A stretch of DNA of 64,000 bases, taken from Escherichia coli. GTDB taxonomy: Bacteria; Pseudomonadota; Gammaproteobacteria; Enterobacterales; Enterobacteriaceae. The DNA lies in the NCBI RefSeq assembly GCF_003018255.1, contig NZ_CP027440.1, one strand, 5' to 3'. Numbering within the stretch: position 1 is the first letter of the stretch; each line of letters opens with the position of its first letter. The notes below the pieces were generated by a model, which searched no databases, had not been told where the DNA came from, and worked only from the letters and a program-made list of their open reading frames with translations. This document shows, in pieces, positions 13,704-19,864 of the stretch. The translations under genes were made by a program, and so were the position numbers.

Positions 13704-14411
13704 ATGAATACCCAACGAAAATACGGGAGAACCTGGCATTATCCTTTCTCCCCCGGCACCACCAGCGATGACCGCATTAATGCCGATTACTGGCAGGATT
13801 TACAGGCCATCACGCAATTGGTGCACACAGAAAAACTCGACGGTGAAAATAACTGCCTTAACCGCTACGGCGTGTTTGCCCGTTCCCATGCCGCGCCTAC
13901 GCAGTCGGCATGGACCTATAAAATTCGCCAACGCTGGCAACTGCTGAAAAACGATCTCGGCGATCTGGAGTTGTTTGGTGAAAATCTTTATGCCGTGCAT
14001 TCGATTGAATATCGCGCCCTGGAGCAGGATTTTTATCTGTTTGCCGTTCGCTGCCAGGATATGTGGCTGAGCTGGGAAGAGGTGCAGTTTTACGCCGCTC
14101 TGTTTGATTTCCCCTGCGTTCCCGAAATCTCCGGCCCGCAACCGGGGAATGATGAAAAAAGCTGGCAACGTGATTTTCTGGCGCTGACCAATGCGCGCGG
14201 CGCGTTCGATCCCTGGGATACGCAAACCGGGCAACCCTGTACGCTGGAAGGCATTGTCAGCAGGAATCGTGATGCGTTTTCCGTCGCTGACTTTTCGCAT
14301 AACGTCTTCAAGTATGTGCGCAAAAATCATGTCAAAATCACCGTCCACTGGAAACGACACTGGCAACGGGCGCGGATGGCCCATGAGTTCGATTATGGAG
14401 AACAGTCATGA
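13704..14411 (+). CDS. putative ATP-dependent polynucleotide (RNA) ligase-like nucleotidyltransferase
   Basis: 235-aa ORF; motif I KLDGEN (K44, nt 13833-13850), motif III LFGEN (about residue 91), motif IV EGIVSR (182-187), motif [10 protein letters not shown] (203-211), in ligase order and Rnl2-like spacing; call rests on motif reading only. Confidence 0.62.
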
Positions 14412-15520
14412 TTTGGCAGCTTACCGACGACAAACGCTGGTCGGCGCTACGTCAGCGTTTTAGCTGGGTTGAGGAGATGCATCACACGCCACAAGACCCG
14501 GAGCATCATGGTGAAGGTGACGTCGGCGTGCATACCGAAATGGTGCTGAACGCCCTCGTTACTCAGCCAGAATTCCAGCAACTCCCCGCTCAACAGCAGG
14601 AAGTTTTATGGGCGGCGGCGTTATTGCATGATGTTGAAAAGCGCAGCACTACCGTGCAGGAAAACGGACGTATTCAGTCGCCTGGCCATGCTCGTCGGGG
14701 CGAACTGACGGCCCGACAAATTTTATGGCGCGATATCCCAACGCCGTTCGTGCTACGCGAGCAAATTGTTGCGCTGGTGCGTCTGCATGGGTTACCGCTA
14801 TGGTTACTGGAACGTCCGGAACCGGAGCGTTTGCTGCTCACGGCTGCAATGCGCATCGACACGCGTCTGCTCGCTTTGCTTGCTCGTGCCGATCTGCTTG
14901 GTCGCCAAAGCCCGGATCAGCAATCAATGCTGGAACGCATCGATCTGTTCGAGCTGTTTTGCCATGAGCAACAATGCTGGGGAAAAATGCGCCCGTTCGT
15001 TTCTGATTCCGCACGCTGGCACTACCTGACTCATGAGCAAAGTTCTCCTGATTTTGTTCCCTGGGAGGCTGAACCTTTTGAGGTTATTTTGCTGTGTGGC
15101 TTACCGGGTATGGGCAAAGATCGCTATATCAGTGAACAGTGCCAGGGAATGGACGTTATCAGCCTTGATGATATGCGGCGGCGAATCAATGCCAGTCCGG
15201 ACGACAAAACCGCCACCGGGCGTATTGTGCAACAGGCAAAAGAAGAGGCGCGCGTTTTTTTACGCCAGAAAAAGCCGTTCATCTGGAATGCAACGAACAT
15301 TACCCGCCAGCTGCGCAGCCAGCTCATCAGTCTGTTTACGGCTTACGGCGCACGAGTAAAAATCGTTTATCTGGAAGTGCCATGGGCGCAATGGAAGCAG
15401 CAAAATGCCAGACGCGAGTATGCAGTTCCTGAAGCGGTCGTGATGCGGATGGCCTCAAGGCTGGAAGTTCCTCAACCTGATGAAGCACATAGCGTGGAAT
15501 ATCGGATGACTGACAGGTAA
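14408..15520 (+). CDS. putative bifunctional HD-domain phosphoesterase / P-loop polynucleotide kinase (HD-Pnk-like end-healing enzyme)
   Basis: 370-aa ORF whose ATG overlaps upstream stop (ATGA); N-terminal His cluster H33-H34, H42 and HD dyad H74-D75; C-terminal Walker A-like GLPGMGKD (nt 15098-15121); domain assignment by motif only. Confidence 0.6.
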
Positions 15521-15525
15521 CAAAA

Positions 15526-15552
15526 GCCGGGCGGTGTTTTCACCAGCCCGGC
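15526..15552 (-). terminator. rho-independent terminator at luxS 3' end (possibly bidirectional)
   Basis: Stem GCCGGGC / GCCCGGC around a 13-nt loop; on the minus strand followed by TTTTG; lies between convergent ORF 14408-15520 and luxS. Confidence 0.65.
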
Positions 15553-15570
15553 CTCTTCTGCTTAAACTGA

Positions 15571-16086
15571 CTAAATGTGCAGTTCCTGCAACTTCTCTTT
15601 CGGCAGCGCCAGTTCTTCGTTGCTGTTGATGCGCACGTCACGTTCCAGAATGCTACGCGCAATATCCTGCGCTTCCTGCAACGAGTGCATCTGGTAAGTG
15701 CCACACTGGTAGACGTTCAGTTCCGGGATCTGATTCTGATCCTGCACTTTCAGCACGTCTTCCATTGCCGCTTTCCAGGCATCAGCAACACGCTGCTCAT
15801 CTGGCGTACCAATCAGACTCATATAAAAACCGGTGCGGCAGCCCATTGGCGAGATATCGATAATCTCTACACCATTACCGTTAAGATGGTTACGCATAAA
15901 ACCAGCAAACAGGTGCTCCAGGGTATGGATCCCTCTTTCTGGCATCACTTCTTTGTTCGGCACGCAGAAGCGCAGATCGAACACGGTGATTGCGTCGCCA
16001 TGCGGGGTGTTCATTGTTTTCGCCACCCGAACTGCAGGCGCTTCCATCCGGGTATGATCGACTGTGAAGCTATCTAACAACGGCAT
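15571..16086 (-). CDS. luxS: S-ribosylhomocysteine lyase (autoinducer-2 synthase)
   Basis: 171-aa ORF; recognised as LuxS (HTLEHL metal-binding motif). Confidence 0.95.
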
Positions 16087-16154
16087 TTAGCCACCTCCGG
16101 TAATTTTTTTTTAAAATTTTCTGAACTCTTTCTTCCCAGGCGAGTCTGAGTATA

Positions 16155-16227
16155 TGAAAGACGCGCATTTGTTATCATCATCCCTGAATTCAGAGATGAA
16201 ATTTTGGCCACTCACGAGTGGCCTTTT
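16155..16227 (+). ncRNA. micA: MicA (SraD) small regulatory RNA
   Basis: Matches remembered MicA sequence GAAAGACGCGCAUUUGUUAUCAUCAUCCCUGAAUUCAGAGAUGAAAUUUUGGCCACUCACGAGUGGCCUUUUU; divergent from luxS; 3' hairpin plus U-run. Confidence 0.85.
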
Positions 16228-16236
16228 TCTTTTCTG

Positions 16237-17793
16237 TCAGGCGTGCTTTTCCAGCCACACCGCAAACGGTTCGGTATCAGCGGCTTCCATTTCCTGCTGA
16301 CGGCGTTCAGACGCCTCGCGCTCGGCTATAAAATCCTCTTCGCGCAGAATTTCCAACGGCTCTTCACGCAGCAGATTACGGTAGGCTTCTGCAAACGCTT
16401 TGCCTGTTCCGCCAATACCAGTATCAATCATAGACCTTAAGATACGGGCAGAGAAAGTCAGATCGGGATTATCGAAGCAGGCGACCAGTTCATCACACAC
16501 TTTCTGATACGCTTCGCCGCCGTTAATGCTATCCAGCGTTTGCGCGACGCGTTTCAGATCGCGGAACAGATCTTTACCCACCTGCGGTAACGGGAACTGC
16601 GCGGTTTCGCAGCCGATACCCAGCGTCAGGCCCGGTTTGCGACCTTCGAGGATCACCCGGTTCCAGTTAACGCGTGTACAGGCAAGTTCTTTACTGCTCA
16701 TTTCCGGTGCATCAGCCAGCGCACACCAGACCATAAACAGGTCGAGGAATCGCACCTGTTGTTCATCTACACCAATCGGCGAGAACGGGTTGATGTCCAG
16801 CGAGCGGACTTCAATATATTCAATGCCGCCACGTAACAGCGCATCAGAAGGCGACTCACCACTGCGGGTAACGCGTTTTGGACGAATCGGCGCGTACAGT
16901 TCGTTTTCAATCTGCAGCACATTGCTGTTGATTTGCAGCCGCTTACCGTCTTTCTCAATACCAATCTTCGCGTACTCTTCCGATGGCGTTTTGATTGCCT
17001 GTTTAAGGCCCGCCACGTACTCGTAGAGATCATTGAAGGTGATACCAAGATTGCTTTGCGATTTATTGGTATAGCCGAGATCGCTCAAACGAAGAGAGGT
17101 CGCATACGGCAGGTAATACATACCGCACTCGGTTTTCTCAAACGGCAGCGACGTTGGTTTTCCTTGCAAGAAAGAAGAACAAATCGCTGGAGACGCACCA
17201 AACAGATAAGGAATGACCCAACCGAAACGATAGTAATTGCGGATAACGCGGAAATAGCCCGCAGAAATTTTCTCTTTGGCATCAGCGCCCGAGATATCAC
17301 CGCACTTCGCTTGCCAGAATGCCATTGGCAAAGAGAAATTGTAGTGCACGCCGGAAATGGTTTGCATCAGCGCGCCGTAGCGATTTTTCAGCCCTTCACG
17401 GTACAGCGTTTTAAAGCGTCCGGTGTTAGAAGTGCCGTACTGTGCCAGTTCGATGTCCTGACCTTCTGCGATATAGCATGGCATACTTAACGGCCACATC
17501 CGCTCATCGCCCATATTGCGCGCCGTATAGCGATGCAGATCGCGCATAAAGGTCAGCATATGTTCAATATCACCATCCACTGGTGTAATAAATTCCAGCA
17601 ATGCTTCCGCAAAATCGGTAGTAATCCATTTATGGGTCAGTGCAGAACCTAATGCTTCAGGATGACCTGTTGTTGCCAGTGTGCCATCAGCATTAACACG
17701 CAAAGTTTCGCGCTCCAGCCCACGCTGTATCCCCTTTAACGCCTGAGGATGTTTTTCCAGCCAGGCCAGCGCCTGTGATACGTCCGGGATCAA
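16237..17793 (-). CDS. gshA: glutamate-cysteine ligase
   Basis: 518-aa ORF; recognised as GshA. Confidence 0.94.
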
Positions 17794-19214: not shown

Positions 19215-19277
19215 ATTGGGAAAATTTATTTTACTGCTGATATTGATATCGCTACTAAAGCCATATCAAGTAAGAGA

Positions 19278-19354
19278 TGGTGCATCCGGGAGGATTCGAA
19301 CCTCCGACCGCTCGGTTCGTAGCCGAGTACTCTATCCAGCTGAGCTACGGATGC
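19278..19354 (-). tRNA. argZ: tRNA-Arg (anticodon ACG)
   Basis: Identical 77-nt copy; name by position tentative. Confidence 0.9.
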
Positions 19355-19416
19355 ATCGGGAAATTTATTTTACTGCTGATATTGATACCGCTACTAAAGC
19401 CATATCAAGTAAGAGA

Positions 19417-19493
19417 TGGTGCATCCGGGAGGATTCGAACCTCCGACCGCTCGGTTCGTAGCCGAGTACTCTATCCAGCTGAGCTACGGATGC
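19417..19493 (-). tRNA. argY: tRNA-Arg (anticodon ACG)
   Basis: Identical 77-nt copy; name by position tentative. Confidence 0.9.
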
Positions 19494-19557
19494 ATCTGGA
19501 AACTTACTTTACTGCAGATTTTTTGATACCGCTACTAAAGCCGTATCAAGTAAGAGA

Positions 19558-19691
19558 TGGTGCATCCGGGAGGATTACTCGCCTTGCGGCTCGCCCTTCG
19601 GGCCGTTGCTAAAGCAACGTTATCCTCCCTGGTGCCTGCGGTTATTACCGCCACCTCTTCCATACCTTCATCGCTGAAGGTACGTAGAATA
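19558..19691 (-). repeat. tRNA-Arg 3'-end-derived hairpin repeat (pseudo-tRNA fragment), copy 2
   Basis: Starts with TGGTGCATCCGGGAGGATT then diverges; same inverted-repeat core (cgcccttcgggcc ... atcctccc) as copy 1. Confidence 0.7.
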
Positions 19692-19768
19692 TGGTGCATC
19701 CGGGAGGATTCGAACCTCCGACCGCTCGGTTCGTAGCCGAGTACTCTATCCAGCTGAGCTACGGATGC
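19692..19768 (-). tRNA. argV: tRNA-Arg (anticodon ACG)
   Basis: Identical 77-nt copy; name by position tentative. Confidence 0.9.
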
Positions 19769-19771
19769 AAA

Positions 19772-19864
19772 TGGCGGTGAGGCGGGGATTCGAACCCCGG
19801 ATGCAGCTTTTGACCGCATACTCCCTTAGCAGGGGAGCGCCTTCAGCCTCTCGGCCACCTCACC
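19772..19864 (-). tRNA. serV: tRNA-Ser (anticodon GCU)
   Basis: 93 nt; reverse complement matches remembered tRNA-Ser(GCU) with long variable arm and CCA. Confidence 0.88.

Follow-up and report, generated by a model that had tools for sequence, protein, structure and literature searches.

Genes between emrB and luxS

The DNA analysed, hereafter the window, is a stretch of 64,000 nucleotides (nt) from Escherichia coli (assembly GCF_003018255.1, contig NZ_CP027440.1). The interval between emrB and luxS hosts in it a cassette of two genes, which encode a stand-alone ATP-dependent ligase of the RNA type and HD-Pnk, a protein combining an HD phosphoesterase domain and a P-loop polynucleotide kinase (Table 1). 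Judged from sequence, the cassette is a previously unstudied member of the known family of ligase/HD-Pnk heal-and-seal operons. The ligase stop and the HD-Pnk start overlap by 4 nt (ATGA); both open reading frames (ORFs) are intact, and every residue invariant in the family is retained. A cassette 100% identical in sequence is found in E. coli strain 2014C-3338. A literature search combining emrB, luxS and RNA ligase found nothing.

Genes are ordered in the window as emrR-emrA-emrB, ligase and HD-Pnk on the plus strand, then luxS, MicA, gshA, yqaA and yqaB, next to which lie the argQZYV-serV tRNA array, csrA and alaS on the minus strand. The initial annotation of this DNA had put forward, as a hypothesis, that the cassette is a healing-and-sealing system countering anticodon nucleases, and had pointed to the tRNA genes in the vicinity. 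The healing-and-sealing part is supported by the encoded proteins, as an HD domain joined to a polynucleotide kinase corresponds to end healing and the ligase is of the RNA type.

Table 1. Coordinates of the cassette and of surrounding features. Positions are those of the window, except in the last two rows, which refer to loci found elsewhere.
Feature	Position	Strand	Basis or remark
Stand-alone ATP-dependent RNA-type ligase gene, 235 amino acids	13704-14411	+	Pfam RNA_ligase PF09414
HD-Pnk gene, 370 amino acids	14408-15520	+	AAA_33 kinase and weak HD match
Leader 5' of the ligase gene, intergenic	13447-13703	+	257-nt spacer after emrB
emrB terminator hairpin in leader	13454-13475	+	Terminator-like site scan
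Second leader hairpin, CTGAGC-loop-GCTCAG followed by T-rich tract	13566-13583	+	Alignment, fold
GC-rich hairpin GCCGGGCGGTG-TTTT-CACCAGCCCGGC between convergent HD-Pnk and luxS stops	15526-15552	.	Sequence reading
MicA small RNA, between luxS and gshA as in K-12	16156-16227	+	83.9 bits; ordinary feature
tRNA-Arg(ACG)	19138-19214	-	
tRNA-Arg(ACG)	19278-19354	-	
tRNA-Arg(ACG)	19417-19493	-	
tRNA-Arg(ACG)	19692-19768	-	
tRNA-Ser(GCU)	19772-19864	-	
argQ-argZ-argY-argV-serV tRNA array	19138-19864	-	Core-genome neighbour, outside the repair system
Huge-phage loci near tRNA arrays	L087 64-9092; L091/L092 23-9071; L088/L089 3214-9092		
RtcB-PrfH-ligase-HD-Pnk rows	L008-L010 Serratia; L021, L023, L032, L034, L060 Bacteroides; L048 Dysgonomonas		

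The ligase and HD-Pnk proteins

The ligase matches the Pfam RNA_ligase family (E 4.4e-28) and, at the level of sequence profiles, tRNA and RNA ligases; an NCBIfam search gave no family for it, and homologues found in the protein search form 1,242 clusters. Residues K44-x-D46-G47 (motif I), E93 (III), E182-G183 (IV) and K203 (V) are invariant in the E. coli protein and 52 distant homologues, and Lys44, within KLDG, is the presumed site of adenylylation. A family-specific N-terminal segment (Y7, R9, H12, S16, D22, D23) is also conserved. The modelled protein consists of a single nucleotidyltransferase domain with the covalent nucleotidyltransferase fold and a short C-terminal tail. The five best structural neighbours are all RNA ligases, DNA ligases scoring lower, and the nick-sealing enzymes Rnl2 and Rnl5 are closer than T4 Rnl1. 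Two distant homologues carry tandem ligase domains. One, P0175, is 675 amino acids long; the other, P0177 (1,083 amino acids), is a single polypeptide that combines two RNA_ligase domains in tandem with a PTP-SAK phosphatase and an AAA_33 kinase, and is the sole distant relative, among those scanned, with domains beyond the ligase. By its predicted domains, the ligase-phosphatase-kinase triad is kept in P0177 even with the phosphatase swapped for another type (the PTP-type "Swiss Army Knife").

In HD-Pnk, the HD phosphoesterase domain spans approximately residues 1-200 and displays the ligand set His...His-Asp...His...His...Asp expected of the operon type described in Runella slithyformis (H34, H74-D75, H94, H127, D162), its profile match being weak. 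HD matches were obtained by fold as well, and this domain resembles the HD domain of tRNA CCA-adding/repair enzymes. The C-terminal P-loop kinase, approximately residues 224-360, features the motif GLPGMGKD and residues D254, R257 and R336, and matches AAA_33 with an E value of 6.6e-32. An Asp occupies the P-loop position where Ser or Thr is usual, and this substitution is conserved family-wide. The kinase matches the kinase segment of TIGR04075 (bacterial Pnkp), and both the Clostridium thermocellum Pnkp kinase and T4 Pnk are matched by sequence and by fold. The top Foldseek match is mammalian PNKP, and matches to the tRNA kinases PSTK and KTI12 were also obtained. One scan of representative genomes yielded at least 565 matches to HD-Pnk.

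Genomic company of the module

The neighbourhood of HD-Pnk relatives at 50-98% identity was surveyed in 80 loci from 80 species of Enterobacterales and Bacteroidota. The pairing is obligatory: in all 80 loci, hence in two phyla, HD-Pnk is directly preceded by a gene for a ligase homologue, and the module is found in differing chromosomal contexts across families. With constant pairing in varying contexts, ligase and HD-Pnk behave as one unit. A single locus, from a Dysgonomonas metagenome-assembled genome (MAG; L051, 4105-4875), has an ORF of 256 amino acids assigned to no family between the two genes.

Genes for RNA repair adjoin the module in 23 of the 80 loci. Most frequent among these is an RtcB-family ligase gene, which adjoins the module in the same orientation in 19 loci and in no fewer than four arrangements; in nine of them, from Serratia, Bacteroides and Dysgonomonas, RtcB, PrfH, ligase and HD-Pnk genes form one co-oriented row (Table 1). 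Against TIGR03072, the PrfH proteins encoded in these rows reach 305-322 bits; the Serratia RtcB reaches 584 bits with the model of PrfH-associated RtcB. Genes for the RNA 2'-phosphotransferase Tpt1 (NF002014, 263 bits) and pairs of genes for RlaP nucleotidyltransferases (PF10127, 267 bits) are each adjacent in three loci. The only neighbour annotated as a nuclease type is a TatD-family hydrolase, confined to Budviciaceae. Experiments on RtcB2-PrfH have demonstrated the rescue and re-ligation of ribosomes in which 16S rRNA had been cut by colicin E3 (PMC9304027, PMC9223846), and a role in repairing tRNA ends has been proposed for RlaP and Tpt1 (PMC12776372). TPR, Pol-beta and charged-helix genes are named as accessory genes in the main text of a review on PrfH neighbourhoods, where the ligase/HD-Pnk pair does not appear (PMC6514570).

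Individual loci depart from these patterns. The Dysgonomonas row has a Tpt1 gene inserted before the ligase. In a Flammeovirgaceae MAG (L013, 3333-10577) two RtcB-family genes flank the module, and a RlaP gene pair lies between them. In two further loci (L062, L076) the order ligase-HD-Pnk-RtcB is followed by a gene for a protein of approximately 690 amino acids resembling AAA+ and M41 peptidases.

Copies in huge phages

The ligase/HD-Pnk pair was found in one uncultured 462-kb phage of GenBank, and HD-Pnk in 12 IMG/VR contigs of 30-597 kb, about nine of which are distinct; the ligase gene is upstream in 10 of the 12. Arrays of tRNA genes are found at 8 kb or less from the module in three to four of the approximately nine distinct contigs, a count made over the contig flanks rather than over whole contigs. 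This is the sole positional support for the earlier idea of a link to tRNA. In huge-phage contigs of 55-369 kb the repair genes are located 0.7-4 kb downstream of tRNA arrays comprising up to 12 tRNAs; in the same contigs (L087-L089, L091, L092) small unnamed genes separate ligase and HD-Pnk, and PHROGs identified none of these. In phage LR756500.1 (L084, 4856-5950) the ligase is extended at its N terminus by about 139 amino acids, which weakly match the HNH region of IscB (E 2.3e-4); an AAA ATPase gene precedes it, and a gene for a DarG-like macrodomain lies 5 kb downstream. Sets of ligase, kinase and phosphoesterase have been read, in a comparison of jumbo phages, as an answer to host attack on tRNA (PMC7824862). 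The copies found here agree with the published idea that large phages carry tRNAs together with RNA-repair enzymes to withstand attacks of the host on translation.

Distance from the tRNA array

As first reported, four tRNA-Arg(ACG) genes of one identical sequence and a tRNA-Ser gene are close to the cassette: coordinates and sequences were confirmed, and the distance, given as about 3.6 kb, is 3,617 nt when measured between the stop codon of HD-Pnk and the first tRNA gene. A plus-strand tRNA-Arg(TCG) called by ARAGORN at 19677-19748 was rejected as an antisense artefact, as it overlaps the real minus-strand tRNA-Arg at 19692-19768, the only one of the two that Rfam reports. The interval is occupied by luxS, gshA, yqaA and yqaB, on the opposite strand, and by MicA.

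The array is present in 5,425 of 5,426 complete E. coli genomes, and is found at the same place in the cassette-free strain K-12. A tRNA gene lies within 10 kb of the module in 13 of the 80 loci surveyed, and within 4 kb in six; 67 have none within 10 kb. An Arg/Ser array was found only in E. coli, Klebsiella spallanzanii, Enterobacter and Superficieibacter, all hosting the module in the emrB-luxS slot. The 1.32 Mb of flanks examined contain 13 tRNA clusters, about one per 100 kb, which is roughly the density of an ordinary bacterial genome. E. coli has approximately 86 tRNA genes in some 40 clusters, and a randomly placed insert of 1.8 kb has a chance of roughly 7-9% of falling within 3.6 kb of one of them. 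A tRNA gene a few kb away is thus expected by chance at about one locus in ten, and is no evidence of function.

The proximity of tRNA-Arg and tRNA-Ser genes is an accident of chromosome position and gives no clue to function, because array and cassette vary independently across E. coli genomes, because they are transcribed separately, from opposite strands, and four protein genes and a small RNA gene lie between them, and because most module loci have no tRNA nearby, Arg/Ser genes being found only at the shared slot. The reservation made at the outset, that the vicinity might be coincidental, proved right in view of the core-genome array, synteny and background density; the vicinity does not point to tRNA-Arg or anticodon nucleases. 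Two Flammeovirgaceae loci, the only very close cases among the 80, have tRNA genes 131-230 nt 3' of HD-Pnk, of the Arg-ACG/Tyr type in L057 and Tyr/Pro/Asn in L070.

Distribution and history of the cassette

About 999 of the 5,426 E. coli genomes have the cassette, in each case in a single chromosomal copy located between emrB and luxS. The same slot houses the module in K. spallanzanii, Enterobacter sp. and Superficieibacter, and relatives at 76-94% identity are found in E. albertii, Kosakonia, Salmonella and Citrobacter. The corresponding K-12 spacer measures 63 nt, and the entire emrB-luxS spacer of the window differs from it. Neither direct nor inverted repeats were found at the cassette junctions, and no insertion sequences, integrases or other mobility genes flank it. 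Recent insertion by a mobile element was rejected on these grounds. Among the carriers listed, cassette identity is mostly 95-99%; for flanking core genes, identity is 97.9-98.7% in the cassette-free genomes listed. The closeness of carrier identity to that of flanking core genes argues therefore for long retention, and the cassette looks like an old locus lost many times in E. coli rather than a recent import.

Several E. coli alleles of HD-Pnk are frameshifted or truncated, each with tens to hundreds of database members (the alleles in question are P0024, P0025, P0036, P0053 and P0006). In one allele, with 165 members, residues 1-82 and with them the HD motif are missing; in another, with 216 members, a frameshift falls near residue 222. 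In the largest cluster, the representative has HY in place of HD.

Leader and terminators

A leader block of approximately 70 nt (about 13515-13590, within 13510-13600), which includes the second leader hairpin, is conserved across five genera of Enterobacteriaceae. In the five-genus alignment the stem of this hairpin is kept and the loop varies; the hairpin is confined to the five loci at the emrB slot, and was not found in the other 75 loci of the survey. The 194-nt leader RNA folds with a z score of -3.85. The conserved hairpin may serve as an attenuator, or else as another terminator. A scan for sigma-70 consensus promoters 5' of the ligase gene found none, and the terminator hairpin of emrB makes read-through of transcription from this gene unlikely. 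The hairpin between the convergent HD-Pnk and luxS genes is probably a terminator shared by both in the two directions; we infer this role from sequence reading, because the consensus terminator scan made no call at 15526-15552. A different hairpin is found in its place at the empty site of K-12.

Proposed function and alternatives

The evidence leans somewhat towards the cassette being an accessory two-gene module of the ligase/HD-Pnk type for the repair of breaks, most probably in RNA. Substrates would be breaks with a 2',3'-cyclic phosphate (or a 3'- or 2'-phosphate) and a 5'-OH, which are the ends typical of cleavage by metal-independent ribotoxins and stress RNases. The HD domain would strip the phosphate from the 3' end, the P-loop domain would phosphorylate the 5'-OH, and the ligase, adenylylated at Lys44, would seal the 3'-OH to the 5'-phosphate. 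Likely clients are RNAs that take part in translation (tRNA, rRNA of damaged ribosomes, or both), for which the module may offer a second route beside direct ligation of the RtcB type. The Runella HD-Pnk is described as a characterised 2',3'-phosphoesterase and 5'-OH kinase (PMC6097658). Protection against ribotoxins, the core of the initial annotation, remains reasonable, and is strengthened by the RtcB, PrfH, Tpt1 and RlaP neighbours and by the huge-phage copies; a link to tRNA-Arg is not supported by the vicinity of the array.

Several observations weigh against RNA repair as the function of the cassette. The Runella HD-Pnk reportedly acts also on DNA 3'-phosphate ends. According to the title of Schmier and Shuman 2018, as cited in PMC6300522, the Deinococcus enzyme aids in resisting ionising radiation and mitomycin C. 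DNA is therefore suggested as a target by these two enzymes. The Runella ligase forms ligase-AMP but sealed none of the 3'-OH/5'-PO4 DNAs or RNAs tried, and the natural substrates are not known according to its authors (PMC6097658). PADLOC defence models matched neither ligase nor HD-Pnk, and no rtcB, prfH, Tpt1 or toxin gene adjoins the cassette in the E. coli window. About 82% of complete E. coli genomes lack the cassette, and this absence, together with the truncated alleles, indicates that selection for it is conditional at best.

A narrower proposal, which we regard as unlikely, sees the pair as a second, RtcB-independent arm of ribosome repair. After a cut in rRNA of the colicin E3 type and rescue of the PrfH type, it would heal ends that RtcB is no longer able to use, namely those with a 2'-phosphate, a 3'-OH or a phosphorylated 5' terminus, and would close the nick within the ribosome. 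If the ligase required a structured nick of this kind, embedded in the ribosome, this would account for the self-adenylylation of the Runella enzyme and its failure on generic substrates. If this were true, E. coli carriers would be a tractable model for assigning the substrate of the family.

There is a modest chance that tRNA is nevertheless the main substrate, by way of general repair of breaks in the anticodon loop or at the 3' end, the neighbouring array being coincidental. The chemistry is that of T4 Pnkp and Rnl1, the kinase matches PSTK and KTI12 besides Pnk, phage copies sit beside tRNA arrays, and RlaP and Tpt1, both proposed to repair tRNA ends (PMC12776372), are among the neighbours; the commonest partners, however, are RtcB and PrfH, for which 16S rRNA within the ribosome is the demonstrated substrate, and the ligase fold is less like Rnl1 than Rnl2/Rnl5. 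A dedicated counter-measure to anticodon nucleases, with a functional position next to tRNA-Arg/Ser (mending tRNA-Arg after its cleavage by colicin D, for example), is extremely improbable. Ends with cyclic phosphate and 5'-OH do suit this enzyme set, tRNA-Arg(ICG) is the target of colicin D, and the phage arrays and the likeness of the HD domain to CCA-adding/repair enzymes can be counted in the same direction. The positional argument is already contradicted, the array being a core-genome feature independent of the cassette, separated from it by five unrelated genes, with tRNA density around the module at background level and most of the 80 species tRNA-free within 10 kb. The distance of the ligase fold from T4 Rnl1 speaks likewise against it, and no anticodon nuclease or colicin immunity gene was found near the cassette in the window.

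Repair of DNA or RNA-DNA hybrid breaks with 3'-phosphate and 5'-OH ends (oxidative, radiation-induced or left by abortive nuclease action), in place of RNA, is doubtful. It is favoured by the titles of two reports, one naming the Runella HD-Pnk a DNA/RNA end-healing enzyme (cited in PMC6097658), the other being the Deinococcus report mentioned above (cited in PMC6300522), by the frequency of HD-Pnk homologues on Deinococcus replicons (18 of the 57 matching plasmid-collection records), and by mammalian PNKP, a DNA repair enzyme, as the top Foldseek match of the kinase. It agrees poorly with the RNA ligases that make up the five best structural neighbours and the profile matches of the ligase, with RNA-repair genes adjacent in 23 loci, and with a TatD-family hydrolase as the sole annotated nuclease-type neighbour. 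It is, finally, very improbable that the E. coli cassette is a remnant in decay, no longer under selection for any function: the missing cassette in most genomes, the damaged HD-Pnk alleles and the lack of a recognisable promoter would suit such a view, but the window ORFs are intact with all family-invariant residues, the leader is conserved across five genera, and carrier identity is near that of flanking core genes.

Hundreds of species carry the ligase/HD-Pnk operon, and the E. coli copy makes the question of what it repairs tractable, as about one fifth of E. coli genomes have the cassette and K-12 provides a natural empty-site control. The recurrent linkage to RtcB-PrfH points to colicin E3 in the first place, and then to colicins D and E5.

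Comparison with known repair systems

The E. coli ligase shares nucleotidyltransferase motifs I, III, IV and V with the Rnl2/Rnl5 clade. The accessory domain needed for nick sealing, C-terminal in T4 Rnl2 and N-terminal in the Naegleria and Deinococcus Rnl5, is missing; structural alignments to 5cot and 2hvq involve only the nucleotidyltransferase parts, identity is only 16-20%, and the E. coli enzyme has a conserved N-terminal segment of its own. By sequence and fold it resembles Rnl2 and Rnl5 enzymes, yet is not a strict member of either group.

Phage T4 Pnkp and Rnl1 together reverse the cleavage of tRNA-Lys by PrrC. The cassette is similar in the combination of 3'-phosphate removal, 5' phosphorylation and ATP-dependent sealing predicted for it, and related modules are found in large phages. 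T4 Pnkp, however, has a HAD (DxDxT) phosphatase in place of the HD domain and the reverse domain order; the cassette has neither this phosphatase-kinase fusion nor an Rnl1-type ligase. The E. coli module is also chromosomal, and window neighbourhood, PADLOC and synteny showed no link to an anticodon nuclease or to a tRNA target.

Pnkp-Hen1 and Pnkp1-Rnl-Hen1 systems similarly encode kinase, phosphoesterase and adenylyltransferase/ligase together, and the C. thermocellum Pnkp kinase is the closest solved relative of the HD-Pnk kinase by sequence. Their phosphoesterase is a calcineurin-type metallophosphoesterase instead of an HD domain, and no Hen1 2'-O-methyltransferase is part of the cassette, which has two genes only and is bounded by emrB and luxS. 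RtcB2-PrfH modules are, as the cassette, accessory, patchy in distribution and aimed at breaks with cyclic phosphate and 5'-OH. RtcB differs in joining 3'-phosphate or cyclic-phosphate ends to 5'-OH directly with GTP, whereas the pair would heal the ends first and use ATP; neither rtcB nor prfH is present in the window.

The closest likeness is to the R. slithyformis cluster. In this, a Tpt1 gene and a methyltransferase-HIT gene are found just upstream, whereas the E. coli cassette has neither and is flanked by emrB and luxS. The gene order is otherwise the same, a small ATP-dependent ligase ORF overlapping the start of the HD-phosphoesterase/P-loop kinase gene (PMC6097658), and in the window too the ligase gene is directly upstream with overlapping ORFs. 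The likeness is one of architecture, gene order and description, the nearest sequences compared being those of Cytophagales (Dyadobacter, Chryseolinea), with HD-Pnk at 53-59% identity. Taking homologues of Cytophagales, Chitinophagales and Bacteroidales together, E. coli HD-Pnk is 50-59% and the ligase 52-68% identical to them, and homologues of the E. coli pair, as those of the Runella proteins, are widespread across phyla.

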